A stretch of DNA of 64,000 nucleotides from a virus, in IMG/VR virus record IMGVR_UViG_3300030430_004034, positions 23,959-87,958 of that record. One strand, written 5' to 3'. Below, one piece after another: positions 1,706 to 63,968 of this stretch. The notes under the pieces are model-generated. The model did not search any database. It was given only the letters and a program-made list of their open reading frames with translations, and was not told the origin of the DNA. Both the position numbers and the translations under genes were made by a program. The number at the start of each line of letters is the position of its first letter. Within the stretch, counting starts at the first letter, position 1.

Positions 1706-1706
1706 T

Positions 1707-1959: not shown

Positions 1960-2035
1960 TGCCCCTCTACAGAAACTACGAACACTGTAGAGAGGTGGTA
2001 CTGTCACTACTACCTCAACTCCCTGTAGAGGGGCA
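1960..2035. repeat. 13-bp perfect inverted repeat enclosing a second stem
   Basis: TGCCCCTCTACAG (1960-1972) / CTGTAGAGGGGCA (2023-2035); inner GAGGTGGTA (1992-2000) / TACTACCTC (2008-2016). Confidence 0.8.
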
Positions 2036-2042
2036 AAATAAA

Positions 2043-2270: not shown

Positions 2271-2408
2271 AATACTCAAGAGGTGGCAAGGTTGCCACAA
2301 AATGTAGAGTGTGCGGAGGCAACCTTTACACAGCGCAAGACATCAAACAAGAAGCGCACGAATCATGCCTCAAAGAATACAAAACAAAATTTAGAATGAT
2401 GTGATGAA

Positions 2409-3662
2409 ATGTTTTACAAATTGATTAATTTAACAACAAGAGGAGTGGACCGCCGTTCCGATACAGTCCAACGAAGAATTGGAATTGAAGTTTATGAGGA
2501 GAGCGAATGGCGCAAGAATTCTCAATACCGCCTATCGTCCTACAATGGTTGGAGGCACTGGGCAATAAAAACTCCAAGTCCCAGTTTTAAAATGGATTTT
2601 ACCGTTGAAACAGTAGCAAACGGATTTAAATCACTATTTACTGCTCATCTTTCTAGCACCAATAATAGAAAAAACATCTTGCTGTTTGATTTTAACGACT
2701 TTCATATTAGCGTAAAAAACGCTAGAGGAAGCGTCGTCTTGAATGGACAAACAATGACTCGGACGATTGCGGCAAGACATCTTGCGGCGCTGTGTTTTCA
2801 AACAAAAGATACTTACACGAGAGAGGAGGTAAGAGATAAATTTTTCAAAATTATTAGTATCCCCCCTGATGTAAATTACGCTATAATAAATCGTGCGCCG
2901 TATTCATTCTACAAAGAAGGAAAATACATCAAATGCAGGCTCAATGTAAAGCAAATCTCCTCTAAAGAGGTCGCCTTGGAAATAAGCGAGGGAGTTTGGG
3001 GCACTTTAACGATAAAGCAATTTTTAGGTTATCTTTCTCATTATCTACACGGAACAAATCGAGGGAGTTGGGCTTTTACCTCCCCGGAAAGGCTGTACGA
3101 AAGAGTGATGGGTAAGGAAGGACGAGAATCGGACATCAAAGTTATGAAAAGTTTCCTTATTCAAAACAGGACAAGCGACCTTGTGAATGAACGAGCAGAA
3201 GTCCTTCTAAAAGAAACGCTTGAAAAGCACAGTGGAAAAATCAAACACTACAGCGTAAGAAGCAATAACATTCTCTTTGTCCAAGGAATAGAAAACGACT
3301 GGGTTATCCGGTGGTCTCCTTATAACTCTGATAAAGAAGGAAGACAGTTGGTTAGAACACAGTATCTTGAAACTTCAATGATGGATACAGCCGCATGTTC
3401 ACTGACGAAAGAAAAATCATATTCTATTGCTAGGGGAGAGGACGATAATTGGATTGGTGTTTGTGTGGATAATCTACAAACAAACTCCCCTCAAGTTGAC
3501 CAAGCCATTTCTAGAGTCCTTGTTTGTCTGAACGATAAAGCCACCAAGCAAATGGTTTCCACAATGAGAAGCATTGATTCTGCGAAATACAGAATAGATT
3601 TTGATTCGTTTATTCAAAAAGAAGAGAATGTCATATTTTCATTAAAAAGGATGGCGAAGTAG
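2409..3662 (+). CDS. Hypothetical protein with a candidate E2-like C-terminal domain
   Basis: 417 aa; GVCVDNLQTNSPQVDQAISRVL resembles the E2 active-site segment; lies between the Ubl and E1 genes. Confidence 0.4.
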   Translation: MFYKLINLTTRGVDRRSDTVQRRIGIEVYEESEWRKNSQYRLSSYNGWRHWAIKTPSPSFKMDFTVETVANGFKSLFTAHLSSTNNRKNILLFDFNDFHISVKNARGSVVLNGQTMTRTIAARHLAALCFQTKDTYTREEVRDKFFKIISIPPDVNYAIINRAPYSFYKEGKYIKCRLNVKQISSKEVALEISEGVWGTLTIKQFLGYLSHYLHGTNRGSWAFTSPERLYERVMGKEGRESDIKVMKSFLIQNRTSDLVNERAEVLLKETLEKHSGKIKHYSVRSNNILFVQGIENDWVIRWSPYNSDKEGRQLVRTQYLETSMMDTAACSLTKEKSYSIARGEDDNWIGVCVDNLQTNSPQVDQAISRVLVCLNDKATKQMVSTMRSIDSAKYRIDFDSFIQKEENVIFSLKRMAK

Positions 3663-4484
3663 ATGTTGCCGTGCATAGAGTGCGGAGAAACCTCGTTTCA
3701 TTTTGATGAGCATTTGGGAGAGAGAGTCTGCGATAGTTGCGGTCTTGTGGTCGTGACTGAACCATTTGAACAAGAGGTTAGACTCTACGATAAAGACGGT
3801 AATTCTATCCGTTCAGCAGACAAAATTGTAGGTTCTAAAGCGGTCAATAAATATGACCGGGTGATGTCAACGCATGTGCTTAGGGGTTTGACCTTGAGCA
3901 AAATGTGCATGGCCTCTCTCACACAATCCCGCTCATTGATGAGCAGGATAGAAAACGCCTATTTGTCCTGTTTCCGGGCCGGTGTTTTTGGAATGACTAG
4001 TTATGAATGTAGAGCCACTGCCTTGACGCTGTACCTTCTCAGAGAACGAGACCTACCATATACATTATCGCAAGTCTGTGAAGAGTTTGGCTCAAACAAA
4101 AAAGATGTTTCTAGGCTAACTAAAAGGATAGCAAAGCATTTCGGGACAGCAGGAACAAATCAAATGAATTATCTCGGTCTTGTAGAAAAGCATGCTCTTT
4201 CATTGAAAGACCTAAGTTTTTCTAACTCATGCGGAAGAGTGTTTTCTAAATTTGAAGGTCTTGTTCAAGAGAGAGGGCAAACGCTCAAGCCAAATTATGT
4301 GGCGGCTACCCTCTACATCACCAGCCTACTTGAATACAAAAGGTTCACTCAAAAGCAGATTGGACAGGAGTGCGGTTGTTCTAACAGAACCGTTCGGGAA
4401 ATGACAAAAGAATTACTCGCCATGATTGGCAAAACAGAAAAAGAAATTAAAGGAAAGGGAATACAATGGCTTACTTCGGTGTAA
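3663..4484 (+). CDS. tfb: Transcription initiation factor IIB (TFB) homolog
   Basis: N-terminal Zn ribbon CIECG...D...GERVCDSCGLVV; two cyclin-like repeats (ATALTLYL / VAATLYI) with an HTH (TQKQIGQECGCSNRTVR). Confidence 0.9.
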   Translation: MLPCIECGETSFHFDEHLGERVCDSCGLVVVTEPFEQEVRLYDKDGNSIRSADKIVGSKAVNKYDRVMSTHVLRGLTLSKMCMASLTQSRSLMSRIENAYLSCFRAGVFGMTSYECRATALTLYLLRERDLPYTLSQVCEEFGSNKKDVSRLTKRIAKHFGTAGTNQMNYLGLVEKHALSLKDLSFSNSCGRVFSKFEGLVQERGQTLKPNYVAATLYITSLLEYKRFTQKQIGQECGCSNRTVREMTKELLAMIGKTEKEIKGKGIQWLTSV

Positions 4485-4648
4485 AAAAGGGAACAGGCAG
4501 GACTTATTGCAGGTTATGTTTAGGGGATATAGAGAAAGGACAGCCCGCTATTTATGTTAGCGGCTACCGAGCAGGTGGACAGGTCCACGCTTTGCCTGAA
4601 CATTGTCCATATCTTAGGAAAAAATTAGAAGAATTAAAGGAGGAATAA
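4466..4648 (+). CDS. Small PARP-type zinc-finger-like protein
   Basis: GRTYCRLCLGDIEKG...HALPEHC resembles zf-PARP (R-x2-C-x2-C-x3-I-x-KG...H...C). Confidence 0.5.
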   Translation: MAYFGVKKGTGRTYCRLCLGDIEKGQPAIYVSGYRAGGQVHALPEHCPYLRKKLEELKEE

Positions 4649-4650
4649 TA

Positions 4651-4911
4651 ATGACGAAAAATAAGAATAACTTTGGAACTTTCTTCGTTACTACGACGGA
4701 TTTTTCAAAACGAATAGTGGAAACAAATGTGGACGAGCAAGGACCGGAGGACAAACTCAAGTCAGGCGAATGCCGTAATAAAATCATCCGCAAAATACTG
4801 AAAATGAAATTGACTCCTTCCGACTTAGCATGGTTGGCGGAGGGACTTATGGACATTGTTTCTGAAATGGATGAAGCGGGTGTTGACTACAGCGATGAGG
4901 TGGAAATATGA
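4651..4911 (+). CDS. Hypothetical protein
   Basis: GGAGG SD, tightly packed in the operon. Confidence 0.55.
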   Translation: MTKNKNNFGTFFVTTTDFSKRIVETNVDEQGPEDKLKSGECRNKIIRKILKMKLTPSDLAWLAEGLMDIVSEMDEAGVDYSDEVEI

Positions 4912-5078
4912 AAATCATAGTTACGACATTAAAGAAATGCAAGGAATGTGGAGAGTTGAAATTGACTCAACATGACCTTTGTAGAGAATGCAGAGGAACG
5001 CCAAACACCACTGGCGATGAAAAACAACGGGGCTTTCTCCGTCGCATCCTTGATGATGTGAAAAAGAAGGAGGAATAG
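4908..5078 (+). CDS. Small Zn-finger protein (not in ORF track)
   Basis: MKIIVTTLKKCKECGELKLTQHDLCRECRG...; ATGA overlap with the upstream gene; ends 2 nt before E1. Confidence 0.6.
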   Translation: MKIIVTTLKKCKECGELKLTQHDLCRECRGTPNTTGDEKQRGFLRRILDDVKKKEE

Positions 5079-5080
5079 AA

Positions 5081-5638
5081 ATGAAAAGAAAAATACTGAT
5101 AATTGGAGCAGGTGGCATCGGGAGTTTCCTTGTACCACTTTTAGATAAGACGGGCCTTTACGCCATCAGCGTTAGCGACCCCGATACTGTAGAAACGAAG
5201 AATTTGACTTACCAAAACTTCAATGAGGAAGATGTAGGTTCTCTCAAGGTCATGGCCTTGCAGAAAAAGCACATGATTAGCCCCAACAAATTTCCTATCT
5301 TGACAGAGGGACAACTTGCTGGCTACGACCTTGTGGTTTGCTGTGTAGACAATTTGACCGCACGACGCCTTCTCTACCGCTCTCAGGGCTTCCCTTGGCT
5401 TGACCTACGAGCACAGGGTAGAAACTGCGCTTACATCACCTACAAGGCCGACCCTGCTACTTACGACACTTTGCTGTCCGGTCCCGATGGGAGTTTTTCT
5501 TGTCAAGGGGATGCTTGGGATGGCTCCAATGAGGCTGTCCACTTCATGCAGGTGGCGATTGCGGGTATCGGTGCTGAATGGATTCAGCGTTGGTTTAACG
5601 ACGAAGAAGTGAACGGGTTTGGAACCCTTTTTGTTTGA
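5081..5638 (+). CDS. ThiF/MoeB/E1-family ubiquitin-like activating enzyme (minimal)
   Basis: GAGGIGS, D-x-D-x-VE-x-KNL-x-YQ, DLVVCCVDN...AR, DLRAQGR; candidate catalytic Cys in FSCQ. Confidence 0.9.
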   Translation: MKRKILIIGAGGIGSFLVPLLDKTGLYAISVSDPDTVETKNLTYQNFNEEDVGSLKVMALQKKHMISPNKFPILTEGQLAGYDLVVCCVDNLTARRLLYRSQGFPWLDLRAQGRNCAYITYKADPATYDTLLSGPDGSFSCQGDAWDGSNEAVHFMQVAIAGIGAEWIQRWFNDEEVNGFGTLFV

Positions 5639-5647
5639 GGTGAAAAC

Positions 5648-6232
5648 ATGGAAAAGAAAACAACAGGAGAATTGATAGAAGAAATACGAACCAAGAAATC
5701 TGCTCATCAAATGTGGCTTAGGCGTAAAGTTGCCCCCTACATAACAAGCATTTGGGAAGACTTGCTGGAATCAGATGAAGGGTCAGGAAAAGACACCATT
5801 CACAGTCTTGAATTTCATGAGGCTATTTGGATGGCTTCAACTTGGCTACTACCCGGTCTTGAAGTCCAAGTTGTAGTTGATGATAATTGGAACCTTTTCA
5901 TTTCTTCAGGAACCGCAGGTTTTGTAGGGTTTCCAAAAGAACCCAAAGGAATGAAGTTGCCTATCCGTTGCTGGATTCATACCCACCCGTTTGGGAGCGC
6001 ATACTTTTCCGGCATTGATTGGAAAACGGTGTCTGTATGGGAGAAACATATGGATTGCGCCTATGTTCTAGGTGGAGGCAACCATTACGGTTTTTGGGAA
6101 CAAAAAAATCCCAACGAATTGACAATCTACCATGAACCCGTTGATGGCTTCAAGGATGAATTTAGAGTGCAAGTAAAGAGTGAAAGTCTCAACATACCTG
6201 AACCCGAAGGTGAGTTAGATGACATATACTGA
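5648..6232 (+). CDS. JAB/MPN+ (JAMM) metalloprotease
   Basis: Intact E...H-x-H-x7-S-x2-D motif (LEVQV...HTHPFGSAYFSGID). Confidence 0.88.
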   Translation: MEKKTTGELIEEIRTKKSAHQMWLRRKVAPYITSIWEDLLESDEGSGKDTIHSLEFHEAIWMASTWLLPGLEVQVVVDDNWNLFISSGTAGFVGFPKEPKGMKLPIRCWIHTHPFGSAYFSGIDWKTVSVWEKHMDCAYVLGGGNHYGFWEQKNPNELTIYHEPVDGFKDEFRVQVKSESLNIPEPEGELDDIY

Positions 6233-6440
6233 AAAGGACATTGGAAAGGTTATAACTTACGAGGGACACAATGGAACCCTAAAAGACGAAAGAATCGTTC
6301 ATGTGTATTGTCAAATCTGCTCTGCTCAATTTATTGGGCCAATCAGAGAAGCCGGTGGTTTTCTTGGAGCGCACGAGTTGTTCCACAACTGGGAGTTTGC
6401 CGCTATGATTCAAGAGAATAAAGGAGGCTTGGTTCCTTGA
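6219..6440 (+). CDS. Small C2H2-type Zn-finger protein
   Basis: CQIC...HELFH. Confidence 0.55.
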   Translation: MTYTEKDIGKVITYEGHNGTLKDERIVHVYCQICSAQFIGPIREAGGFLGAHELFHNWEFAAMIQENKGGLVP

Positions 6441-6537
6441 CCGAACGCAGAAAAAGCATCTTATTTTTCACAAGAGTTTGTTTCTACTGCACTGGAAGTC
6501 TTGCGTTCCTTGTCAACATCGGTATGGAGGTGACGGC

Positions 6538-7179
6538 GTGAGCCTACACGAGAATTTCGGGAAGGGAAACAAAGACGCCAACGCAAACCTTACGGCCAAC
6601 GATGTAGTTTACACTCCTAGAGAAATTGCTAGACAAATGATTGCTTTCTACACCGGGGATTTGTTGAGTGATTTTAGACCTAAAATGCCTAGTTTGGGAA
6701 ATAATAGGGGACTTGTTGTTCTTGACCCATGCCGTGGCGATGGTGCATTCTACGACCAATACCCTTCCTACTGCCAAAAAGAATGGTGTGAAATTACAGA
6801 CGGTCGTGACTTTTTTGATTGGAATGTGAAAGTGGATTGGATTATAACCAACCCACCCTATAGCATCTACGAAGAATTCTGTAAAAAGGCGTTTGAAATC
6901 GCAGATAATGTTTGTTTTCTTGTTCCCTTATCAAAAGTTGTGTCAAGTTTAGGTCGCATTCAAGCCACCATGGACTACGGAGGTTTTGTTTCTATTCACA
7001 TCATTGGTGCGAGCCAATGCGGTTTTCCGTTCGGGTTTCCAGCGGCGGCTGTCCACATGAAGAGAGGCTACGAAGGAAAAACTGAAATTAAGATGTGGGA
7101 AGATAAAACACAGAGAAGCCTTCTAGACTACGCCTCAATCGTTGACGAAGATGAAGAAGCCTACAAATATTCAGTATGA
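6538..7179 (+). CDS. DNA amino-methyltransferase (N6-adenine type, orphan)
   Basis: VYTP...VLDPCRGDGAF (motif I) and ITNPPY (motif IV); GTG start at 6538 after GGAGGTGA. Confidence 0.85.
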   Translation: MSLHENFGKGNKDANANLTANDVVYTPREIARQMIAFYTGDLLSDFRPKMPSLGNNRGLVVLDPCRGDGAFYDQYPSYCQKEWCEITDGRDFFDWNVKVDWIITNPPYSIYEEFCKKAFEIADNVCFLVPLSKVVSSLGRIQATMDYGGFVSIHIIGASQCGFPFGFPAAAVHMKRGYEGKTEIKMWEDKTQRSLLDYASIVDEDEEAYKYSV

Positions 7180-7194
7180 CGGGAGAGTATTTCA

Positions 7195-7380
7195 ATGAAT
7201 AAAATTCAGTATTGCTTTGATTGCGGAAACAGAATCAAGCGTTATCATAACTCAAGGTGGAACTTGCGACCTCATGAGGCTAAGCATTTAGATGATGTGT
7301 GCGAATGCGATGTGCCTTTGACTCAATACTCCGATTATGCGATTGCATTATTGGCTCAAATGAAGGTTCGTGATTTGTGA
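7195..7380 (+). CDS. Small Cys-rich hypothetical protein
   Basis: CFDC...CEC. Confidence 0.5.
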   Translation: MNKIQYCFDCGNRIKRYHNSRWNLRPHEAKHLDDVCECDVPLTQYSDYAIALLAQMKVRDL

Positions 7381-9499: not shown

Positions 9500-9937
9500 A
9501 TGGATTGGAAAGAAGTGATGAAATCGGATGGGCTTTACCATCCAATTTCATATGAACATGGCTATTTTGATGAAGTTAGATTTATTGACGACGAATTAAA
9601 TCAGATGGGTGACCAAATCATCCTACATCTTAAATTCAGAAATTGGTCTAGTTTAGACCGCTACAAAGACTTTAACGGAGGACGAATAGCCGAGATTCAC
9701 CTATCAATCTCTCCTTCCCTACAAGGAAAGGGGGTTGCGGAAAAAGCGATTGTTGGTTCTATTCTTGATAAAGAAGAAGTCTTACGCTATACACCTTTAT
9801 ACTTAAATTATAGACGAATCATCAATGACCGAGTTTTTTCAGTAGTTGAAAAACTGAAAAAGAATAGTCTAGTAAAAACCACTGAAATTGTTAATGATGA
9901 AAATAAACCTATTGGGCTTATGGTGGAGAGGAAATGA
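9500..9937 (+). CDS. GNAT-like acetyltransferase with a WxxVMK leader
   Basis: IHLSISPSLQGKGVA matches GNAT motif A; starts MDWKEVMKS at ATG 9500. Confidence 0.5.
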   Translation: MDWKEVMKSDGLYHPISYEHGYFDEVRFIDDELNQMGDQIILHLKFRNWSSLDRYKDFNGGRIAEIHLSISPSLQGKGVAEKAIVGSILDKEEVLRYTPLYLNYRRIINDRVFSVVEKLKKNSLVKTTEIVNDENKPIGLMVERK

Positions 9938-49596: not shown

Positions 49597-50100
49597 CTAA
49601 AAATATTTATCTAATATTTTCTTTAAATGTTCTTGGACTCTTAAATCATCGAATCTTAACATCGCTGAATCTCTCAATGCCTCTATTACTTCGGTTTTTC
49701 TATTGTCATATTCTAAATCACGCAGTAATTTTTTTCCTAATTCCTTAACTCTTGAATCGGGTAAATATTTGTATTCTAAATTAAAATATGCTGGTCTTCC
49801 TCTTGGAGTAGAGCCTTTTTTTCTACTAATCCACCCATAGTCACTATCGTAGGTCAAAAACATTTTTTCTTTTGTAGGGATTGTTTGTTTTATCATTGGC
49901 TTAGAAATGTCTTTTAATTCATCTGCTCTTGAGCCAAAAAACGCATAAACCAATGCTTCTGTTAATCTTGGTGTCCAATATCCTGTGTCCTCATCACCTT
50001 GGGAACCTTGAAATAATCTATTAAATTTCCAAGAATAATCTTTGCCGTATTCTTCATCTGTTTGAATAATATATGGTTTTTTTAAGATGTTCCACCACAT
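49597..50100 (-). CDS. WxxILK-leader protein, possible ADP-ribosyltransferase-like fold
   Basis: Starts MWWNILKK; RLFQG...GYWTP...ALVYA. Confidence 0.45.
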   Translation of the reverse strand: MWWNILKKPYIIQTDEEYGKDYSWKFNRLFQGSQGDEDTGYWTPRLTEALVYAFFGSRADELKDISKPMIKQTIPTKEKMFLTYDSDYGWISRKKGSTPRGRPAYFNLEYKYLPDSRVKELGKKLLRDLEYDNRKTEVIEALRDSAMLRFDDLRVQEHLKKILDKYF

Positions 50101-51818: not shown

Positions 51819-53150
51819 TCAAGCGACATTGGTGATTTTACCTTGGCCCAAGAAGAAGGAACAGCCCGTCTCCGCAATCGTGCGGTAAAGGGCTTGGTTT
51901 CCAAGACGACCCACACCGAATGGGTTTCCGTTGCTGATACCGTCCTCAAAGTATTGGGTTGGCTTCATCACTTGGAGCCACAGATGGTCCGTATCAAGGA
52001 ACAGAAGGTCGCTGATACCCGTATCAGAAGAATTGGTAGTAGAAGTCATTTCCTTCACAGGGATGAGAGGAATGTCGTAGTAGGTTGCCACACGGAAACC
52101 AACTTCTGCACCCTTGATACCTCGGACACCGTTTACGGTAGGAATAACTTCCTTTCGGTCCATGAATCGCTCTTGCGACTGGAGCAAGTCAGCGATTGTC
52201 TGAATGGTATCGTATCCCGTAAGAATGACTTTAGGAGAACCACCAGCAACACGAAGTCTGCGAATCATGTCGTTAATCAAAGTCAAGGTAAGAGGTCGGA
52301 CAGAACTGGATGCGTAAGAACCACCAAAGTCCACCTCTGCGTCAAGGAAAGAAGCAGAGTTTCTGTTGTCTCCAAAGATTTTACCAAGGTTGTTTGATGC
52401 GCTCAAAGTGTCCGTAGCAAGAACGCCACCATCTAGTGCGGCCAATTCTGCGTTGCTCGTAACAATCTTCAACAGCGAGGTGTAGTTTCTCTCAATGTCT
52501 CCAAGAGCCGAGGCTTCACCGTAGAATTCAAGAGGCATAACCAGCATCTTGTTCTGTGCTTCTGCGTGAGCCTTACCCATATCTTCACGGATAATAGCAC
52601 GGATGTCTCCCAGTCCATCGTCAATCTGTGCCATTTCCATAGCAAGTTCGGAAATGTCAAACTGATGAGCAATCGTCTTTGGACTCATGAAGAGTTGAGC
52701 GTAGGTTGGAGCCATGCTACCGAGACCATCAGCCGCAGTAGAAAGGCCAGCGTTCTCAGGAACGCCACCGATTTCGTCGGCTTGTGGCGAATCGTCACCG
52801 ATACCGCCGCCGCTACCGTCGCTCTGCAAAGACAGAGTGGAACCGCTACCACCAAATGGTCGGCTCTTGAGGATTCTCCAACCGCTGGAGTTGTAAGGTC
52901 GCTTTGACAGAATAGCCAAGGCGTTTACTTCACGGTTGAGCATTGACCAAACTTTCTGTCCGTAAAGAACATTGTAGAGGCCAGTAGTGGTTCCGATACC
53001 GGAAACCCCACTTGCCCCTGCGTCGGCAATATCGTGAGCCGTATGTAGGCCCTGAACGACACCCGCTTGCTTAAGCAAGGAGTTTCCGCCGAAGTTTGGT
53101 AGTCCGTAAGTTGATGCTTCTAAGTCTCTAATCGTGTTAATGTATCCCAT
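51819..53150 (-). CDS. Major capsid protein (HK97 fold)
   Basis: Follows protease/scaffold; 443 aa; HK97-type pattern (PKTIAH...SEL, PKVILTG, YYDIPLI, LFLDT). Confidence 0.85.
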   Translation of the reverse strand: MGYINTIRDLEASTYGLPNFGGNSLLKQAGVVQGLHTAHDIADAGASGVSGIGTTTGLYNVLYGQKVWSMLNREVNALAILSKRPYNSSGWRILKSRPFGGSGSTLSLQSDGSGGGIGDDSPQADEIGGVPENAGLSTAADGLGSMAPTYAQLFMSPKTIAHQFDISELAMEMAQIDDGLGDIRAIIREDMGKAHAEAQNKMLVMPLEFYGEASALGDIERNYTSLLKIVTSNAELAALDGGVLATDTLSASNNLGKIFGDNRNSASFLDAEVDFGGSYASSSVRPLTLTLINDMIRRLRVAGGSPKVILTGYDTIQTIADLLQSQERFMDRKEVIPTVNGVRGIKGAEVGFRVATYYDIPLIPVKEMTSTTNSSDTGISDLLFLDTDHLWLQVMKPTQYFEDGISNGNPFGVGRLGNQALYRTIAETGCSFFLGQGKITNVA

Positions 53151-53159: not shown

Positions 53160-54374
53160 TCAAATGTTTCCGCCAGCCATCTTGTGAATGTCGCTCCAAG
53201 ACATGTCAGCGACTTCCTCCAAGGAGAAGGTCTTGACCTCTTGAGCGGCCTCAGTAGCCTTGCGAATTTCCTCGTTGCCGGACTCCAAAGACTTTCGGAG
53301 TTGGCTAAATTGTTCTTGAAGACTTGCGATTTCGGTCTGAGCGTCGTACTCAGACTTAGCGACCGCTTCGTTTCTGCTAGAAACTTCTGCTTCAAACCTC
53401 TTAGCGAAGGTGTCTTGGAGGTTGTCAAAAGCCAACTTCTCAAGTTGTTCTGCTCGGAATTGAGCGTATGCCTTCTCAATGTTTTCACGAGAAAGGTTCA
53501 GGGTAGAAAACTCCTCGTTTCCAAAAGCCTTTGAAACTTCTCCTTCATTGGTTGCTTGCGAATCGCCAACAGGACGGCCACCCATAACCACATAGCGGTC
53601 TGCGGGTTCGCCAGTTTCAACGGAGCCTCCGTCAAGGGTGGGCGTAGGACCTTTTGCTTCGTCGTCCTTGTATTCTCCCATACCCTTTTCTTCGTCCATC
53701 ATTTCCTTGTCGTCCATCATTTCCTTGTCGTCCATCATCTCCTCTCCCATGGCTCTTTCCATAGCGGGGTCTTTTTCTTCCTTGCGGAGAGTGTTCACTT
53801 CTTGAAGAAGCGTATCCAATTCCGCCAATGCTTTTTCCAGTTTGTTCATGTCTTTCACATCCTCTTGTTTTAGTATGTCAAATTTCGCTTCGGGATTGAT
53901 TCCTTTCTCACAGATGGTTACTTCGTGTAATTCAAGTTTGCTAATTTCGTTGTATTCGCCCAACTCTTCATTACGCTTTTTCACTTTTTGTAGTGCTTGC
54001 CCTCCTATGCTAAAACTCCTCAGTGTACCCTTGCGAATCCCTCGTCCTATTTCTTTGGCTTTCTCTATGTCGTCTCTCAGTTTTATTACTACAAAAAATC
54101 CGACATCATCTACTTCTGTTTTGAATAGTCTCCCTTGGCTGTCTCTATAACTTTCTACAACTTCCCCGACTTGAACATTTGAATGGTTGGTCATTACATT
54201 TCTAAACTTGGGGTTCTCCATGTATTTTTTTACTGCCTCGTTAAGTGCTTTGAGTGTGATAAGGTCGTTTTGTTTGTCCACCATTTCAATTGAAGCATAT
54301 CCACCAATCATTAATTCGTCGGACTTTAGAATTTGAAACTCCTGATTAAGTTCTGCCTTGATGATAGAAGACAT
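53160..54374 (-). CDS. Prohead protease fused to a scaffold domain
   Basis: GYAS...DKQND, NH...VG, SFSIGG, EVTI...NPEA.F; acidic coiled-coil C-terminus. Confidence 0.88.
   Translation of the reverse strand: MSSIIKAELNQEFQILKSDELMIGGYASIEMVDKQNDLITLKALNEAVKKYMENPKFRNVMTNHSNVQVGEVVESYRDSQGRLFKTEVDDVGFFVVIKLRDDIEKAKEIGRGIRKGTLRSFSIGGQALQKVKKRNEELGEYNEISKLELHEVTICEKGINPEAKFDILKQEDVKDMNKLEKALAELDTLLQEVNTLRKEEKDPAMERAMGEEMMDDKEMMDDKEMMDEEKGMGEYKDDEAKGPTPTLDGGSVETGEPADRYVVMGGRPVGDSQATNEGEVSKAFGNEEFSTLNLSRENIEKAYAQFRAEQLEKLAFDNLQDTFAKRFEAEVSSRNEAVAKSEYDAQTEIASLQEQFSQLRKSLESGNEEIRKATEAAQEVKTFSLEEVADMSWSDIHKMAGGNI
53691..53741 (-). repeat. 18-nt tandem repeat (about 3 copies) encoding EMMDDK
   Basis: EMMDDKEMMDDKEMMDEEK in the scaffold linker. 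Confidence 0.85.
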
Positions 54375-54402: not shown

Positions 54403-56904
54403 CTATTTAACGCTATCCGTATTATCGCCCAATTTTATCGTTCTATACTTATCTTCATAAATATTCCAAAGGCCATCATCTGTGTCCTTATCTACAGGTT
54501 TTTGTTCGTATCCTGTAAACGCAATCCAAACTTTTTCTCCTTCGTAATCAACTACACGGAAATGCAACTTTGTTTCAAACTTGTTACCGTTGAGGATATA
54601 TTCGTGGTATCCATGTCGTTGGACACCAATAGTGACATCCCCCTCATCTATCAACTGATGTGTATCCTGTTGTTCGGATATTTCAGCAGGGTACTTTACA
54701 GCCTTACCAAAGAGTGCGAAAATATCATCATCAGTTTCTAAATCAATGGTCCACATGAGCAATTCGTCTTTGTAGTTTACAGAAAAGTTGAGGTTTCCGT
54801 CCTTACGAAGATAAACTTTGAATTGTGCTTGGCTTTTTTGTAAGACTGAATCATCAATAGTAATTTCATTGTTTGATACATTGATGTATTCACTAGCATT
54901 CAAGAAATTGCTAAACGATTCCTTGTCTTCAAATAAATTATCGAACTCTTTCGGGTAATTTCTTACGAGGTATTCTTGTAATTCCTTAACTTTGGTTTTC
55001 TTCCCTCTGTCCATATTATCTTTGGCAAATCGGATTGTAGCAGACCGAATCTGACTCTGATAAGTCTTCATCGTTTTCTCTGCTTCTTGTTTCCACATAT
55101 CTAAATCATTGAGAGCGTTCTTTGCCATGAGGTTGTTTTCTTTGAAACCGTAAAGGACGAACCCGTCCATACTCTTGGCAATAATTGTAGCCTCTCCATG
55201 AATGCCATCAGTAATTGTAATTCCTTTCTCCAAAGAAAGAGCCTTGTATTTTACGCTGGGTTTTGTGTCTTGGGATAACATTTGTAGCGTGACTATTTTA
55301 TCAGGAAGAATCGCTTCGGGAACCTCAATAACTTTTGCAGAGTAAAGAGAATACCTTCCATTGTCTTCTTTAACCTCATCCACCTTTACACGAATGATGT
55401 CTCCAACACCAACCTTGATTTTTGTATTGAGAGCCTTACCCACATTCATGTATTTACGACCGTTCATTTCTACGATAAACTTCCCTTCTTGTTCCTCGTC
55501 TACCGGACCAGCCCCTAAAGTGTAGGAGTAAAGCCCTGACTTTGTAGATTTTTTATCCAGAACCAACATGTCCAAATCAACAAACTTCTTCCATTTCACC
55601 CACTTTGGATTCTTTTTTGTTCCAATAAAATAAGTAGATTCAATGTCCTTAATGACCACGCCTTCGGCTGTAGGCATGTCCATGATTTCTTTTGCGTATT
55701 CGTCAATGTCTTTCAATGAATCTGCAATTCTCGTATCTTTCTTGGAAGGGAAGAATAGATTTCCAGATGATTTAGCAGAGTAATTGTTGAACAAGAGATT
55801 TATTCTGTCTCTCAAAGGTTCCTCTGTCATGTTTCTAGATTCGTGTCGCATAATGTCAAAGACATGGGCTTTCAATTCCATGTCTTGGTACTTGTCTTTG
55901 AAAACATGGGCCACTGTATCTGCTCTATGTAGTGCCTTGTCGCCGTCAAAAAGAATCAATTCAGCATCTAAAATACAGTCTCCGTATGATTTTTTCTTCA
56001 ACTCTTCAACTTGTTCTTTGCATTTCTCGGTGATGTCCTTTTCATTGTAGGAAAACACTTGGACTCTTCCATCAATTTTGTGTAATTGTATTCTCATGCC
56101 ATCGTATTTTTCTTGGACGACATACTCTCCACTGAAACCTTTCAATTCATTCATGTCCTCAATATCAAAAATCCGATACATTGGCTTATTGGGCACGATA
56201 AATTGAGTGATTGCTTTTTCTTCCTCGGACTTTTCGGCTTTTTCTAAATCTACCTCTTGTAATTCTTCAAGAGTTTCTTCAGATGAATTTTCAAGCATGA
56301 TGTCTTCTAGAATATCATTTGCTCTGTTGAATTGTGCTTCCACCTTTTTGGAATCCTTTCCATCACCATAATGCTCAATGATATACAAAGGAACATCATC
56401 AACTTCCAAATCCATTCCTTCTAATCCATCTGTAATTCCATCTTCTTTCAAATCCTTAGAAGAATAGAATTTTCGGGGTAAAGCCTTGTTGTCGGAGCGG
56501 ATAGCATAATGAATAAATTTCACCATTGTTCCGACATCAGAAAGAAGTGCTTCCAAAACATCCCCCTTGAAAGCGTCTGCGAAGGGGTCTGTGACTTCTT
56601 CGGATTCAAAGCGCATGTCCTTGATTCCTTCGTAGATAATTCTAGCCGTGTTGCTTTCAGGGTCTTTTGCGTTGTTATCCTCAATGTGTTTCTCATCTAC
56701 GAACCTCTTGATTTCTTTACCAAGAGGGGATAGGGCATCAAACGCTTCTTTGATTTCTTCAAGAGCGTTTCTCCAACGCCCCCCGTACTCTTTCTTGTCC
56801 TCTCTAGCAGAGAGGTAGGCCACCCTTGTTTTTTCAAAAAGCGCAAGGATTTCGTCGGAAACAGGCGCTTTGACCTTTCCAAACATGAGGCCAGTTGAGG
56901 GCAT
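54403..56904 (-). CDS. Second ATP-dependent ligase, multidomain, in the head module
   Basis: EKYDGMR, LDAE, VFD, EGVVIK, WVKWK and an OB domain; extra N- and C-terminal domains; start MPSTG. Confidence 0.85.
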   Translation of the reverse strand: MPSTGLMFGKVKAPVSDEILALFEKTRVAYLSAREDKKEYGGRWRNALEEIKEAFDALSPLGKEIKRFVDEKHIEDNNAKDPESNTARIIYEGIKDMRFESEEVTDPFADAFKGDVLEALLSDVGTMVKFIHYAIRSDNKALPRKFYSSKDLKEDGITDGLEGMDLEVDDVPLYIIEHYGDGKDSKKVEAQFNRANDILEDIMLENSSEETLEELQEVDLEKAEKSEEEKAITQFIVPNKPMYRIFDIEDMNELKGFSGEYVVQEKYDGMRIQLHKIDGRVQVFSYNEKDITEKCKEQVEELKKKSYGDCILDAELILFDGDKALHRADTVAHVFKDKYQDMELKAHVFDIMRHESRNMTEEPLRDRINLLFNNYSAKSSGNLFFPSKKDTRIADSLKDIDEYAKEIMDMPTAEGVVIKDIESTYFIGTKKNPKWVKWKKFVDLDMLVLDKKSTKSGLYSYTLGAGPVDEEQEGKFIVEMNGRKYMNVGKALNTKIKVGVGDIIRVKVDEVKEDNGRYSLYSAKVIEVPEAILPDKIVTLQMLSQDTKPSVKYKALSLEKGITITDGIHGEATIIAKSMDGFVLYGFKENNLMAKNALNDLDMWKQEAEKTMKTYQSQIRSATIRFAKDNMDRGKKTKVKELQEYLVRNYPKEFDNLFEDKESFSNFLNASEYINVSNNEITIDDSVLQKSQAQFKVYLRKDGNLNFSVNYKDELLMWTIDLETDDDIFALFGKAVKYPAEISEQQDTHQLIDEGDVTIGVQRHGYHEYILNGNKFETKLHFRVVDYEGEKVWIAFTGYEQKPVDKDTDDGLWNIYEDKYRTIKLGDNTDSVK

Positions 56905-57177: not shown

Positions 57178-57402
57178 TCACCTTCCGCTAACAAATTTTT
57201 CTATGTCGTCCCATGACATTTTATGAATGGTATCGCCCGTGGGCATAACAGAGTTGGTCATGGATGGAGTAGGAGATTCAGCGACAACAAACCCTGATTT
57301 CATCAAAAGGTTGTCTTGATGATAAACTGTTTTTTCAAGAGACTGAATTCGCTCAACAAGTGCCTTTAGAACACCCAACATTTCTTCTTCTGTTTCACTC
57401 AC
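57178..57402 (-). CDS. Hypothetical scaffold-like peptide
   Basis: C-terminus IHKMSWDDIEKF resembles the scaffold C-terminus VADMSWSDIHKM. Confidence 0.55.
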   Translation of the reverse strand: MSETEEEMLGVLKALVERIQSLEKTVYHQDNLLMKSGFVVAESPTPSMTNSVMPTGDTIHKMSWDDIEKFVSGR

Positions 57403-57745
57403 TTCTCAAGTCCCCCTTTCTTTTTGGATAAACGATTTCACGAAGTTGTCGGTAAAGCAATTCGTATTCCTTACGGAGTTTGCTAGATAAGGCCAACATA
57501 TCAATGTTCCTTTCATCTATGGATTTGAAACGCTTAACCATTTTTTCATCAGACTTAATGAGTTCCAACTCCTTAAGCATGTCAATTAATTCGCCAAGTT
57601 GCGTAAAGTCTTGTCCAAAATATTCAGTTGGTTCAGCCGTCTGTAGCGTTTTCTTAACTCGCTTTCTTTTCTTTTCGTCCAGAGATTCAAGAATAGGACT
57701 ATTCTCTTTCTCTATCTTTTCTTCTTTGAGTATTAATTCCCACAT
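57395..57745 (-). CDS. WxxILK-leader coiled-coil protein
   Basis: Start MWELILK at 57745 after GGAGG. Confidence 0.6.
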   Translation of the reverse strand: MWELILKEEKIEKENSPILESLDEKKRKRVKKTLQTAEPTEYFGQDFTQLGELIDMLKELELIKSDEKMVKRFKSIDERNIDMLALSSKLRKEYELLYRQLREIVYPKRKGDLRSE

Positions 57746-59605: not shown

Positions 59606-61240
59606 TTAACCAATCCTCCTTTCGCTTCTTCTATCTACATTTTGGTTTCCGGCTTCTTGTGGTAAACCTGTAAGTCGCTTATCTGGCCCTACGCTATTCC
59701 TCGCTTTATTCCTTGTGGCTGGAGGGTTCTCTTGTGGCGTAGAACCTCCACCATCTAACATGGCCATTTGTGCCTCTGCTAAATCTCTCTGGTCCACATT
59801 AGAACCGGCTAATGGGTCCGTTTCAATTTGCTCTCCTTCTCCTTCCATAGTTTCTTTTGGTTCAGGCTTTTTGAAGGTAAAGTTTCCGTCTTCATCCATG
59901 TCCACATCAAATCCTAGATTCTTTGTAGAGGCGGCAATATTGACTTCTAACTCTCTCTTACGGAGAACGGCGACTTCATCCTCTTCTTCGCTTGGAGGCA
60001 ACTTGAGAACCCAATCAGTAATTCCGAATTGTTTGACAAGGAAAGGAAACACATACTCATTGTAGACATTTTGAGCCATCTGAACGGCTCTGTTGGTGAC
60101 AAGAATCTGCATTCCTTCGTTGTTCAAACCACCGCTTGTAGTGTTGTCAGCCATGAAGACTTTACTTACACCGTAAAATGCCGATATTCGGTCTCGTAAG
60201 TCGTCTTTGACAGCGACATATTCCATTTCTTTGAGACTATCCATGAACTTAATCCACTCAACAGAACCCTTACCGTTTTCTGCTTCAATGCCCATAACAG
60301 GGATATAGTGGGGGTCTTGTTCCATTTTTTCTTTGACACCCCTCCAAAATGCGGCCATAGAATCCATGTTTCTTGTTTGAACAGCGAGAAGACCTCTTGG
60401 CATACGACTCTTAGTGTAAGAAGAATTGACATAATTTTCCATGGCGATGAGCGTCATAATGTTGTTGAACAAGGTGAGGATTGGAGACTGCCCATAGAGT
60501 CTGCTTGGACTGTATTTGCTAAAGTGTAGCACTTCACCATCAATGAAATACTGCTCCTCTCCGTTAGCCCGGTTGACATAATGGACAGGATAAAGAGGAC
60601 TTCCGCATTCTTGACAATTTTCGTGAGGCTCCGTAGATAATTGGTCTCGGTGATTAATACAAGTGAAACCTTTGGTCCCACGAACCCCTACTTCATCTGC
60701 GTAGATACTCATCGTCACTGGGTCGCCACGGTAAATCTCTTTGATACGATGCATGCGGATTTTTCCGTTGCCATCTAAATAGTATTCTTTGACAAGAACG
60801 ATGTAAGCATCATCCATAATGTTGAGGTCGTCTTCCAATTCTTTGAAGACATCAATGAATTTCTGCTCCGACTTGTTGACATAAGTTTCAATGAATCTTT
60901 CTGCAAATTCTAGTTGTTTTGGGTCGGGTCTTTCAAGTTCCAAAGAACCACACCTAGCACATTCTTGGACGGGTCTTTTGTGTGTTTTTTGACACACTTT
61001 GCATTTTGACTCAAACGCCTTTTCCCAAACATAGCCTCTTCTGAAGACCTCTTGTTTGAGTTGGGTTATGCATGTTCGTACAATAACAGATTGCTGAACG
61101 ACGCTGTAAACCAGCGGCGCTGTCATCATATATGACTGCTCACGCTCTTGAATCCCGACATTGTATACCTTTCTGTCGTAGGGTTTTGGGGTTGTTCTTC
61201 GGAACAGATTTGTGAAGCCGAATCGTCTTTTTTCAGCCAT
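59606..61240 (-). CDS. Portal protein
   Basis: V..CI..L, DL...DDAY, EVLH...YGQSPI, PRGLL, I...YGV portal motifs; upstream of protease and MCP. Confidence 0.85.
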   Translation of the reverse strand: MAEKRRFGFTNLFRRTTPKPYDRKVYNVGIQEREQSYMMTAPLVYSVVQQSVIVRTCITQLKQEVFRRGYVWEKAFESKCKVCQKTHKRPVQECARCGSLELERPDPKQLEFAERFIETYVNKSEQKFIDVFKELEDDLNIMDDAYIVLVKEYYLDGNGKIRMHRIKEIYRGDPVTMSIYADEVGVRGTKGFTCINHRDQLSTEPHENCQECGSPLYPVHYVNRANGEEQYFIDGEVLHFSKYSPSRLYGQSPILTLFNNIMTLIAMENYVNSSYTKSRMPRGLLAVQTRNMDSMAAFWRGVKEKMEQDPHYIPVMGIEAENGKGSVEWIKFMDSLKEMEYVAVKDDLRDRISAFYGVSKVFMADNTTSGGLNNEGMQILVTNRAVQMAQNVYNEYVFPFLVKQFGITDWVLKLPPSEEEDEVAVLRKRELEVNIAASTKNLGFDVDMDEDGNFTFKKPEPKETMEGEGEQIETDPLAGSNVDQRDLAEAQMAMLDGGGSTPQENPPATRNKARNSVGPDKRLTGLPQEAGNQNVDRRSERRIG

Positions 61241-61294: not shown

Positions 61295-61648
61295 TCACGA
61301 ACCCTTTCGCCATTTTTTGTTCTTCTTTTCTTTGGTCTTACTTGGACTCCACTTTTCTTTATTAGCCCAATAAGCGGCAGACATTTTTCCACGCTTGATG
61401 TTCTTTGCATGGCGTGATTTGAAGGCTTCCCGTTGTCCGGCAGTTTGATTTGTCCTGACTCCTTTCTGTCCAAACTTAATGTATTTGGCTTTGTTGTTCT
61501 CAAAAGCCATAACATGGTGAGATTTGCCGGAATCGTCGTTTAACCTTTGAGCCTGATTGAGTCCTTTAAGTCCCTTTTTCTTGGCCCTCTCTAAAGCCTT
61601 TGACCTTACGCTCTTTGGCTTCTTCTTGAGAATTTGTTGCCAACTCAT
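61295..61648 (-). CDS. Basic WxxILK-leader protein
   Basis: MSWQQILKK; FGQKG...AFKSRH...AAYWA...W domain. Confidence 0.7.
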   Translation of the reverse strand: MSWQQILKKKPKSVRSKALERAKKKGLKGLNQAQRLNDDSGKSHHVMAFENNKAKYIKFGQKGVRTNQTAGQREAFKSRHAKNIKRGKMSAAYWANKEKWSPSKTKEKKNKKWRKGS

Positions 61649-62076
61649 GCTCTCATCCTCCGGTAATACGCTTCCTCTTCATTAACGGTAAGTGGCCTGC
61701 CTTCTTCCCTTTTGATGTCGTTAAGTGTAGGTTTTCCTTTACCTTGATTTCTATACATTTCAAAGTAGTTATCAACAACTGTTCTTGCGGGGATTTGTCT
61801 TTTTGGTTTAGGAGTAGGTTTTGGTTTAGGGGTGGATGCGGGTTTAGGTCCCGCATACAAAGTATATGCTTCCGATTCGGGAATATATCGGGAAGTAGGT
61901 TTTTCCCCTTGCCATTTATTTCTAGCATATCTTTGTTTCTGCGCCGAACCCATGTAATATGCACTACGGGGTTTAAATGCCTTTTTTCTTTTTTTGTCCC
62001 TCTTACTAGGGTTATTGAACCAATCACGAAGACTATCTCTTTTGAGAATGTCTCTCCAACTCATGCTCTCATCCTC
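61640..62076. repeat. 21-nt direct repeats at gene junctions (61640-61660 and 62056-62076)
   Basis: CCAACTCATGCTCTCATCCTC twice, each preceded by TTGAGAAT; a related copy at about 63031-63053. Confidence 0.9.
61645..62064 (-). CDS. Basic WxxILK-leader protein
   Basis: MSWRDILKR; PK-repeat linker. Confidence 0.7.
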   Translation of the reverse strand: MSWRDILKRDSLRDWFNNPSKRDKKRKKAFKPRSAYYMGSAQKQRYARNKWQGEKPTSRYIPESEAYTLYAGPKPASTPKPKPTPKPKRQIPARTVVDNYFEMYRNQGKGKPTLNDIKREEGRPLTVNEEEAYYRRMRA

Positions 62077-62543
62077 TTTGTTTTTCTTTTCAATTGCTGT
62101 CTCTTCTTTTCAGCCTCGTCCTCTGCTTCTGCTAAATCTTTTTTCTTTTCAGCATCTTTGGCTCTTTTTTTAGCCGCCCTTGCTCTTTGTTCTGTAACTC
62201 CTACAACTAGAGTTTGTCTTTGATGGCTTGCGTTTTTGAATGCAGAACTATTGAAAGTATCTTTAACTGCTTGCCTATTTTTGAAACTAATTGGGACGGT
62301 ATCGCTCTTATCCCTATCCACATATAAATCTGTATTTTTTTTAGAAGTTTCAGGTTCACCCTTTTTTCTATGTATTCTCTTATTAGATTTTTTCTTTAGA
62401 ATATCCCGCCAACCCTTTTTGACATATCCCGAAGCGTAAGCGGCGGCGGCTTGTCTTTCAGCATCTTTACGATTTCTGTAAACTTTACCTTTGCTACCCC
62501 ATTTGTAGCCGCCTTTGACTTTTCTAATGGGAATAGGAATCAC
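62061..62543 (-). CDS. Basic two-domain protein with an internal WRDILK
   Basis: PIRKVKGGYKWG..GKVY domain, then GWRDILKK, then a second domain. Confidence 0.7.
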   Translation of the reverse strand: MIPIPIRKVKGGYKWGSKGKVYRNRKDAERQAAAAYASGYVKKGWRDILKKKSNKRIHRKKGEPETSKKNTDLYVDRDKSDTVPISFKNRQAVKDTFNSSAFKNASHQRQTLVVGVTEQRARAAKKRAKDAEKKKDLAEAEDEAEKKRQQLKRKTKRMRA

Positions 62544-62656
62544 CTTTTCATTTGTTTGCTACGACAATGCGCCCTACAAGTGAACCCCTTCGTTTTATTT
62601 GGACCGCTACAGACACAATACGACATGTCTCTTTTGAGAACATTTTTCCAACTCAT
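62540..62656 (-). CDS. 38-aa WxxVLK-leader Cys-rich peptide (not in ORF track)
   Basis: MSWKNVLKRDMSYCVCSGPNKTKGFTCRAHCRSKQMKR; translationally coupled at both ends. Confidence 0.7.
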   Translation of the reverse strand: MSWKNVLKRDMSYCVCSGPNKTKGFTCRAHCRSKQMKR

Positions 62657-63039
62657 CAGAGTCCTCTCAAATCTATTAAATCGCCATCCTTGTGTTTTCC
62701 GACAATTTTTCTACGCATTAAATCATCTAAGACTCTATTAATCGTTGAACTGGGAGCGATGTCTTTCAAATTCTTCATGCCCAAAGCACCTCCTTCTGGC
62801 GGGAATGTGGCTAAAATTTCTTTCTCTACTTGAGAATCGGTCTTATCTGCTTTCTTTGCGCCATCTCTAAGAACCTCAAAATCCTTAGCAGTAATTTTGT
62901 CCTTGGGCGGGGCCACCCTTGCAATTTTATGTTGGCCCCCTACCAATTTCTTTTCAAAATCGTACTGCCCTTCTTTTTCGTCGTCAGCCTTTTCTCTATG
63001 GCTTCCACAACTTCCTTTCAATATATCCTTCCAACTCAT
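62656..63039 (-). CDS. WxxILK-leader protein with a C-terminal wHTH-like region
   Basis: MSWKDILKG; LVGGQHKI...DFEVLR; internal FEKK and VEKE. Confidence 0.7.
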   Translation of the reverse strand: MSWKDILKGSCGSHREKADDEKEGQYDFEKKLVGGQHKIARVAPPKDKITAKDFEVLRDGAKKADKTDSQVEKEILATFPPEGGALGMKNLKDIAPSSTINRVLDDLMRRKIVGKHKDGDLIDLRGL

Positions 63040-63461
63040 TCTTCCTCATCCTCCGCTTCTTCTTTTCGCATTTGGTTCTTTTTGGACTTTTCATCCTTCG
63101 TTATTGGACCGCCTTTTGCCCAAGTATAACATGCTCTATCTTCGTGGCACTTGAAATCGTGCATCCAACAATACCCAAGACCACCTTTAACATCTTCAAT
63201 CGGCATACAGTCTTTCATTCTTGGGCTGATGTCAAAGGCAATACAATTTGCACACTTTGATTTCTTAGCGGCTTCTATCGTTGTATCCCAATGTTCTGCA
63301 ATTTCTTCCCAGTAGTCTCCGGGTTCGTCAATGTTCAATGGACCATATTTAATGTCCTCATCTTTAATCGCCCTGTTGCGATTTTTTGTATTGAACTTAA
63401 GGTCCTTTGTTGCCCTAGGACACTGTAATTCTTTTAGTATAATCATCCAATCGTCTATCAT
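63036..63461 (-). CDS. WxxILK-leader Cys-rich (HiPIP-like pattern) protein
   Basis: MIDDWMIILKE; CANC..F...C...YC...C...C..W. Confidence 0.65.
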   Translation of the reverse strand: MIDDWMIILKELQCPRATKDLKFNTKNRNRAIKDEDIKYGPLNIDEPGDYWEEIAEHWDTTIEAAKKSKCANCIAFDISPRMKDCMPIEDVKGGLGYCWMHDFKCHEDRACYTWAKGGPITKDEKSKKNQMRKEEAEDEEE

Positions 63462-63751
63462 CTTCCTTCAATCCTCCGATAAACTTTTTTTCCTGCTTTT
63501 GTTCTAGGAACATGTTGTTTTCCTTTTTTACGGCCTTCTCTTTTCTTTCTATTTTCTGCGGCTCTTTGCTTTGGAGTCAATCTTTCAGCAACGGCTTTAG
63601 GAGCATATCTTCCTCTTTTGTATGTCCCCTTCTTTTTCTTTCCTTTGGGATTAGCCATATCTACCCAATTCTCTTTATTCCATTCCACCATATCTTTTTG
63701 CTTATCCGTTAAGCCTTTGATAGTGTTCCACCAATCACTTTTTGTTGACAA
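63458..63751 (-). CDS. Basic protein with a WWNTIK leader
   Basis: Q...EW..ENW...RYAPKA...LT...NRKKREG..KGKQHV; likely start 63751 or 63757. Confidence 0.6.
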   Translation of the reverse strand: MSTKSDWWNTIKGLTDKQKDMVEWNKENWVDMANPKGKKKKGTYKRGRYAPKAVAERLTPKQRAAENRKKREGRKKGKQHVPRTKAGKKVYRRIEGR

Positions 63752-63968
63752 AGCCACCACCTGCCTCTTGATATAATCGGTTGAGTTCTTGGGATTTACG
63801 AGCAGACCATTTATATTTTCCAGTTCCATGAGTTTTTTTACCCCACAATCTCCTATGTATTTTGGCTCTTAGCGACGGTTTAGTATAAACGCCTTTAGGA
63901 ACTTTGTAAGTGTATTTAGGCGTTTGTCGTTGCCTCCTATTTTTTTTCTTAAGAATCTCAAACCACAC
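63735..63968 (-). CDS. Basic WxxILK-leader protein
   Basis: GTG start MWFEILKK after GGAGGTG; YTKPSLR...WSARKSQ...Y..AGGGF. Confidence 0.7.
   Translation of the reverse strand: MWFEILKKKNRRQRQTPKYTYKVPKGVYTKPSLRAKIHRRLWGKKTHGTGKYKWSARKSQELNRLYQEAGGGFVNKK

Follow-up and report, generated by a model that had tools for sequence, protein, structure and literature searches.

A short leader peptide on unrelated late proteins of a magrovirus-like archaeal virus as a candidate prohead-docking tag

Numerous small and otherwise unrelated proteins of a marine archaeal virus begin with one short peptide of the form M-[STN]-W-x-[DE]-[IV]-L-K. The DNA analysed here (64,000 nucleotides, referred to below as the window) comprises positions 23,959 to 87,958 of IMG/VR virus record IMGVR_UViG_3300030430_004034, an 87,958-bp virus contig, and it matches a magrovirus-like archaeal tailed virus, with a gene set that agrees with what has been published on magroviruses, which infect Marine Group II archaea (PMC5434244). 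We found that the peptide, best seen in an array of minus-strand genes at 61295..63968, is a real, family-wide tag conserved at the protein level. We consider it moderately likely that this leader acts as a prohead-docking tag analogous to the capsid-targeting sequence (CTS) of phage T4, in an archaeal virus with a prohead protease of the S78 type. The capsid reading draws on the likeness of the tag to the tail of the viral scaffold, from the bias of tagged genes to the late strand, and from the presence of T4-type leaders on the same protein bodies in other phages.

Within the window, M-x-W-x-x-[IV]-L-K stands at the start of 9-10 genes. A six-frame scan for W..[ILVM][ILVM]K returned 12 matches, nine of them directly after the start codon of a real open reading frame (ORF), against an estimated chance expectation of about 0.03. 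The minus-strand leaders are MSWQQILK (61648), MSWRDILK (62064), MSWKNVLK (62656), MSWKDILK (63039), MIDDWMIILK (63461), MWELILK (57745) and MWWNILK (50100). An earlier note on this DNA had named the leaders and had placed the array directly upstream of the portal gene; all of them are present at the positions it gave, and the array genes (61295..63968) and the portal gene (59606..61240) do adjoin on the minus strand. The tagged genes and the portal gene are as follows.

63735..63968, minus strand: tagged gene 1 of the portal-proximal array, leader MWFEILK; the body matches phrog_17747
63458..63829, minus strand: SDWWNTIK at residue 41 of the ATG-called ORF; phrog_14910 match from residue 40
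63036..63461, minus strand: Cys-rich 'HiPIP-like' protein, tagged, leader MIDDWMIILK
62656..63039, minus strand: 127-aa protein, tagged, leader MSWKDILK
62540..62656, minus strand: 38-aa Cys-rich protein, tagged, leader MSWKNVLK
62061..62543, minus strand: 160-aa protein with a 40-aa phrog_31267 module (PHROG match residues 4-38), an internal GWRDILK and a basic body
61645..62064, minus strand: 139-aa basic protein, tagged, leader MSWRDILK
61295..61648, minus strand: 117-aa basic protein, leader MSWQQILK; the body is a phrog_7595 domain (match residues 18-100)
59606..61240, minus strand: portal protein (Pfam Phage_portal; 30% identical to the portal of halovirus HCTV-5), directly downstream of the tagged array
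57395..57745, minus strand: conserved head-module protein, tagged, leader MWELILK
49597..50100, minus strand: dispersed gene for a 167-aa protein, leader MWWNILK; no Pfam or PHROG family
9500..9937, plus strand: leader MDWKEVMK, immediately behind the chaperonin gene; no other tagged gene is on this strand; no PHROG family

Three array members needed a closer look at their ORFs, and each bore out what the earlier note had read there. The leader MWFEILK is encoded from a GTG start, with a GGAGGTG Shine-Dalgarno sequence and a 6-nt spacer followed by GTG TGG TTT GAG ATT CTT AAG. SDWWNTIK lies inside the ORF called at 63458..63829, the true start of which is probably a GTG or TTG immediately upstream of the motif, since such codons are found there and the phrog_14910 match begins at that point; relatives of this gene start M(x)WWNIIK. 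The internal GWRDILK stands behind the 40-aa module of the 160-aa protein. In relatives, the body of the neighbouring 38-aa protein (62540..62656) has 125-147 aa and is either tagged or fused behind the same 40-aa module. None of the 10 array and dispersed tagged proteins scanned gave a significant Pfam match, and their PHROG matches were to families of unknown function only. The description of some bodies as ART-like or GNAT-like in the earlier note could not be upheld: the former was applied to 49597..50100, which matches neither Pfam nor PHROG, and the sole basis for the latter was one sub-threshold Pfam match outside the window.

The tag follows the late, structural strand throughout the genome. 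By the strict pattern, 14 of the 72 minus-strand (late) genes of the whole genome are tagged versus one of the 65 on the plus strand (Fisher p = 6e-4), and about 20 genes of the 88-kb genome carry the tag when mis-called starts and terminal copies are counted. Tagged genes form two hypervariable arrays flanking the terminase and portal genes; the array upstream of the terminase gene displays MSWQNILK, MSWKDILK, MKWEDILK, MKKWWNLLK, MWKDILK, MWFDILK, MWKGILK and MSWEDILK. At about 12.0 kb of the contig, a run of 10 N breaks a 296-aa ORF, the real start of which is probably an internal MWKGILK.

Relatives were collected as 80 related IMG/VR contigs retrieved via the portal protein. These hold 614 motif matches, 583 on the portal strand and 367 immediately following Met; a simple gene call places the tag on 295 of 1699 genes, with a 20-fold enrichment of Trp at residue 3. 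In complete relatives, a DNA pattern for the leader gives 5-15 matches per genome, nearly all on one strand, versus 0-1 for a reversed-pattern control. As the earlier note had proposed, the proteins behind the leader are unrelated: stripped of it, they fall into 78 BLAST clusters, 64 of which are fully tagged. Apparent untagged orthologues (the MSYCVCS.. family) were considered as cases of tag loss, and this was rejected, as they are fusions or truncations at contig ends. The bodies are mostly small and highly charged (38-550 aa); about one third are acidic, many of them right after the tag. Orthologues of the head-module protein at 57395-57745 in the 80 contigs start either MWE[LR]ILK or MTWD[YF]Y..G..FILK, the latter having an 8-residue insertion between W and ILK, a form that hints that both parts of the leader meet in space. 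Three paralogous small genes (L239:3375-3800, L240:4055-4577) have a variant leader, MWKDEI[RK]K, with the spacing from W to I longer by one residue.

Array gene content varies between close relatives, and the phrog_31267 module followed by GW[RK][DE][IV]LK is joined to three different bodies in four loci. The motif therefore sits where modules meet, and the array genes act as cassettes that can be exchanged.

Conservation of the tag acts on the peptide and not on the DNA, as judged from the diversity of codons in 250 distinct tagged genes. Leu is encoded in the tag by all six codons (CTA 64, TTA 52, TTG 34, CTT 34, CTC 17, CTG 6), Ile by ATT (96), ATA (77) and ATC (20) with a shift toward ATA, and Lys by AAA (172) and AAG (78) near the genome background, so that wobble positions hold merely 0.2-0.6 bits. 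The earlier note had held that conservation at the nucleotide level only would refute its proposal; these counts speak for the opposite. The 104 tagged homologues of one orthologous family all keep W, L and K, and the position after W is E, Q, K or H. Tagged genes have ordinary translation starts, as indicated by a G-rich Shine-Dalgarno sequence at -12 to -7.

At residue 2, the tag has S, T, N or D, and D, E or N predominates at residue 5, which we read as a helix N-cap or capping box that would place W3, I6 and L7 on one face. An AlphaFold2 (AF2) model of the Cys-rich tagged protein (63036..63461), mediocre overall with a mean pLDDT of 65, has a short helix of low confidence in the leader, at residues 4-8, and coil beyond it.

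Copies of the motif away from N-termini point to the head. A position-specific scoring matrix (PSSM) of the leader was run over 413,557 non-N-terminal positions and gave 68 matches at >=14 bits, versus one in shuffled proteins. Besides 31 mis-called starts and one internal copy, these comprise 36 matches within 15 residues of a C-terminus, all 36 belonging to two proteins, the S78 protease-scaffold and a head protein of 67-82 aa. The corresponding genes of the window, together with that of the major capsid protein (MCP), are as follows.

57178..57381, minus strand: 67-aa head-module protein ending in ..HKMSWDDIEKFVSGR; the C-terminal motif is conserved in relatives
53160..54374, minus strand: S78 prohead protease fused to an acidic coiled-coil scaffold region (Pfam Peptidase_S78 at residues 20-177; PHROG head maturation protease)
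51819..53150, minus strand: MCP (Pfam SU10_MCP, barely above the cut-off), directly after the protease-scaffold gene

The protease-scaffold ends in ..DMSWSDIHKMAGGNI, a tail conserved in relatives, so the MSWSDIHK that the earlier note had reported for the scaffold is indeed its C-terminus; both head proteins end in M-[DES]-W-S-D-I-H-K. A homologue search of 1.8 billion representative proteins found protease-scaffolds at 32-59% identity with related tails (..M[ST]W.[ED][IV][HNE].L..), and there are two tail-bearing proteins per genome in all four clades. Cultured haloviruses were set aside as a model, since the protease of one of them, HVTV-1, has no clear MSW tail at its C-terminus. Two genes of the upstream array also carry C-terminal copies, retained in relatives (..KSW[AV]DIVRV and ..MKKSWFK[VG]LK..).

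In a design that recurs in lambda C/Nu3, herpesvirus UL26/UL26.5 and the HK97 gp4 tail, the protease and the scaffold have a common capsid-binding C-terminus. Here too, two head-assembly proteins share a short motif at the extreme C-terminus, but the two come from separate genes and not from nested frames, many non-assembly proteins also have a copy of the motif at the N-terminus, and binding of the tail to the capsid protein is putative. The presumed receptor for both tail and leader would be the MCP.

Further evidence comes from the bodies behind the leader, several of which recur in other phages. The phrog_7595 body (61295-61648) has homologues, up to 60% identical, in roseophages, Celeribacter phage P12053L and cyanophage S-CBS2; the matches begin after the leader, and the two N-termini examined lack W..ILK, and that of a roseophage is without any leader. 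Such alignments show the tag to be an add-on. A 623-aa T4-like-phage protein (L260:8122-9993) ends in a phrog_7595 domain, so this small cargo domain is also a module of a large protein. For the Cys-rich body (63036-63461), 104 of 120 homologues have W..ILK and the other 16 have different leaders. Contigs that hold loci retrieved with one of these 16 reach 190 kb, and in all five long records tested (157-191 kb) a gp21-type prohead protease (PF03420, above the cut-off) was found, which identifies them as T4-like myoviruses. The same Cys-rich domain is also found in an unrelated actinophage, in the head module and adjoining the maturation protease and MCP.

These T4-like marine myoviruses (L243-L322) have side-by-side arrays of unrelated genes that start MK[LK]L[LM][ET][NE]WR[KQ][FY][LI]xE. 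A total of 125-141 different proteins bear this MKxLLxxWRK[FY]LxE leader, in which position W+6 is Glu in 109 of 125, and a second leader, MK[IL]Txxx[LI]xx[IL]IxEE, stands on 55 proteins; L255:10001-13993 and L249:10001-14647 are examples of such arrays. MKTYQEFIAE is the N-terminus of T4 internal proteins IPII and IPIII alike. Both myovirus leaders end in [LI]-x-E, the pattern after which the T4 protease cuts. The arrays look like very large sets of internal proteins. Several magrovirus cargo bodies recur behind T4-type leaders at 66-67% identity: the Cys-rich protein is 66% identical to its T4-like-phage homologue from the first residue after the leader. The body of the 127-aa protein (62656..63039) is 39% identical over 80 aa to a T4-like-phage protein with an MKxT-type leader. 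The same bodies thus bear lineage-specific leaders in two unrelated virus lineages, and one of the leader types is an established capsid address.

Taken as a mechanism, the prohead-docking tag would be a short docking peptide, probably an amphipathic helix turn with an N-cap and with W3, I6 and L7 on one face, put at the start of many unrelated late proteins and occasionally at a protein end or between modules. It would most likely bind the same site of the prohead interior as the C-terminal tails of the S78 protease-scaffold and the second small head protein. The procapsid would then close around tagged proteins, which would later stay with the DNA or be delivered with it. We infer binding to the capsid interior, packaging, any cleavage by the S78 protease after Lys and the cargo role. 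A wider proposal, about which we are slightly more doubtful than confident, is that magroviruses run a large cargo-loading system in which about 20 fast-changing proteins per genome would carry an 8-residue copy of the scaffold docking motif, their bodies being traded with T4-like phages via leader swap.

Several observations weigh against prohead docking. Across clades, leader and tail share only M-S-W-x-[DE]-[IV], and positions 7-8 differ (LK in the leader versus HK, HN, NE or HQ in the tail). The clade X tail, LSWEEVNE, scores a median of -4.5 bits against the leader profile, though genomes of this clade have 5-12 leaders; clade Y2 has the tail MSWEEVH., yet none of its five records (86-107 kb, with two >=90% complete) has a leader. 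No alternative shared leader was found in clade Y2 within 10 kb of the protease gene. Clade X2, with the tail MSWGDIHN, also has 5-12 leaders per genome. Leader and tail co-vary only loosely across the clades. In addition, the case for capsid binding by the scaffold tail is one of analogy to herpesviruses and other phages, a tagged gene is found in the replication arm, 20 or more cargo species per capsid are many for an 88-kb virus, and no residue is conserved after Lys. We read the tail as old and general and the leader as a probable later invention of some clades that copies only the core of the tail, which makes the mimicry argument suggestive rather than tight. The view of the earlier note that the leader mimics the scaffold tail is thus partly supported: the likeness in M-S-W-x-[DE]-[IV] holds, but the mimicry is loose, given the differences at positions 7-8 and the mismatches in clades X and Y2.

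Other explanations can be set against the same observations. The tag might dock proteins to some non-capsid partner that they all have in common: a host factor, for instance, a hub of viral transcription or replication, or a site of assembly or egress. In that case, the resemblance of the tag to the scaffold tail would be due to chance or to a shared partner that is not the capsid protein. The motif does behave as a short linear motif, being found at the N-terminus, at the C-terminus or between modules; the tagged gene in the replication arm, the loose co-variation of leader and tail, and the retention of the tail in clade Y2 without any leader fit this explanation as well. We nevertheless consider it unlikely, with tagged genes strongly biased to the late strand, the sole non-leader copies on head-assembly proteins, and the same bodies behind CTS-like leaders in T4-like phages. 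The motif might instead be mainly a recognition or cut site of the S78 prohead protease, with cleavage after Lys serving maturation or timed destruction and not loading. The HK97 protease also belongs to S78, and in the HK97 MCP sequence Lys103 precedes the mature start, Ser104; the cut between these residues is the sole precedent for a cut after Lys. The motif ends in Lys on the leaders and on the clade-A tail, and the T4 sequence unites targeting with cleavage. Nothing marks a cleavage site here, however, since the position after Lys has no consensus (no conserved P1' residue), which leaves clipping at ILK a guess; Lys is missing from the tails of other clades (HN, NE, HQ), and a cut eight residues in would be of little use unless the peptide also acts, for example in docking. 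A role mainly as protease site is accordingly quite improbable.

Eight residues are short for a stable membrane helix, many bodies, about one third of the total, are acidic, often just behind the tag, and the motif recurs on the scaffold tail of a capsid assembled in the cytoplasm. These points make it very unlikely that the leader is a small membrane-binding amphipathic helix that brings proteins to the host membrane, even though WKDILK is an N-terminal motif of frog dermaseptins (ALWKDILK..), which are membrane-active amphipathic helices, Trp with Ile-Leu and Lys is typical of interfacial anchors, and a polybasic stretch comes next in several bodies. Likeness to the dermaseptin helix itself, which is continuous over 25-34 residues, was rejected: merely eight residues are shared, followed by unrelated and often acidic sequence. 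A purpose at the nucleotide level, whether translational coupling, an efficient frame start or a microhomology linker for cassette exchange, could draw on the ATGA gene overlaps, the A after ATG in 136 of 168 cases, the hypervariable arrays, and the motif's place at a recombination junction that joins one module to three bodies. But wobble positions carry little information and Leu comes from both the TTR and CTN families, copies are also C-terminal and internal, and the orthologues keep W, L and K while neighbouring positions vary. Nucleotide-only conservation is largely refuted by the codon diversity and the C-terminal copies, and we give such a purpose scant credence. Finally, the tag might recruit proteins to the viral Cpn60-family chaperonin, whose gene is followed by one of the tagged genes. 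Clade A has both leader and Cpn60, but clades X and X2, with 5-12 leaders per genome, have Cpn60 in none of five records, and clade Y2 has it in all five and no leaders. Leader and Cpn60 are uncoupled in this phyletic pattern, by which docking to the viral chaperonin was rejected as barely credible. Among complete relatives (G006-G020), the Cpn60 match of clade A is weak (125-151 bits in four records; two pieces of 64-66 bits in G006), that of clade Y2 is strong (392-417 bits, thermosome-like), and clades X and X2 have none.

Prohead docking has its closest parallel in T4. Loading of foreign proteins into heads by a short N-terminal peptide has been shown experimentally for T4 and P1 (PMC9024508). 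As in T4, a tailed virus that encodes a prohead protease has one short N-terminal peptide on small proteins with no other relationship, the tagged genes lie in hypervariable loci with exchangeable bodies, and the peptide has an aromatic-x-x-hydrophobic-hydrophobic pattern (Y-Q-E-F-I in T4, W-K-D-I-L here). Beyond this pattern, it has no sequence identity to MKTYQEFIAE. The protease is of the S78 (HK97) type here and S77/gp21 in T4, the leader ends in Lys instead of [LI]-x-E, about 20 tagged genes per genome compare with a handful in T4, the host is an archaeon, and packaging and cleavage are putative here. The leaders of T4-like marine myoviruses likewise array unrelated bodies behind one leader and share a W-x-x-hydrophobic-L core with the magrovirus tag, but they have 14 residues and end in a gp21-type Glu site. 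P1 DarB shows that an N-terminal signal suffices to load a non-structural protein into a capsid of the HK97-type pathway (PMC9024508), although that signal is on one protein and is not a recognisable motif shared by many. Cargo-loading peptides of encapsulins are also short terminal peptides that send diverse cargo into an HK97-fold shell; in contrast to the leader, they are usually C-terminal, with another consensus and no sequence likeness to it, and encapsulins have no DNA, portal or protease, whereas the virus has a portal, terminase and protease. Leaders of ribosomally synthesized and post-translationally modified peptide (RiPP) precursors were rejected as a model on account of bodies of 38-550 aa, some leaderless homologues, and no significant Pfam match among the 10 proteins scanned.

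The leader is absent from the magrovirus papers PMC5434244 and PMC11706807, and a full-text literature search for leader strings returned no virus paper, in agreement with the earlier note, which knew of no description in archaeal viruses. As far as can be told, the leader swap on bodies shared between magroviruses and T4-like phages, the distribution of leader and tail over the clades, and the rejection of the chaperonin explanation are new findings.

With regard to the rest of the genome, the first ~300 bp of the 87,958-bp contig are repeated at its end, from position 87653, and the genome is therefore circular or terminally redundant. The Pfam scan also detected a large terminase, and the Cpn60-family chaperonin and an archaeal-type replication arm are encoded on the opposite (plus) strand. 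Between the two tagged arrays (contig 1-7200), in transcription order, lie genes for a 561-aa protein, an 813-aa protein, the terminase large subunit and a 448-aa protein; no Pfam family was found for the 561-, 813- and 448-aa proteins, and the 813-aa protein has an internal GMSWKELEKG. The portal protein (59606-61240, minus strand) has Cys-x2-Cys pairs in its N-terminal third (CKVC...CARC, then C...CQEC) that resemble zinc-ribbon insertions. A second ATP-dependent DNA ligase of 833 aa without leader (window 54403-56904, minus strand; Pfam DNA_ligase_A_M, E = 1e-27) is encoded in the head module, between the portal region and the protease gene, and is possibly a packaged enzyme.

Magroviruses are among the most abundant archaeal viruses of the surface ocean, with no cultured member and with most of their small genes lacking an assigned function. 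A recognisable tag would put about 15-20% of magrovirus genes into one functional class with a single partner, probably the capsid interior, and the members of this class are candidates for injected proteins of host takeover or anti-defence. The packaging idea is testable without culture of the virus, and an 8-residue loading tag for an HK97-type shell would be a useful tool. The swap of leaders on shared bodies suggests a traffic of cargo genes between viruses of archaea and of bacteria; if this is true, marine viruses of both domains would draw on a common pool of packaged, probably injected, proteins.

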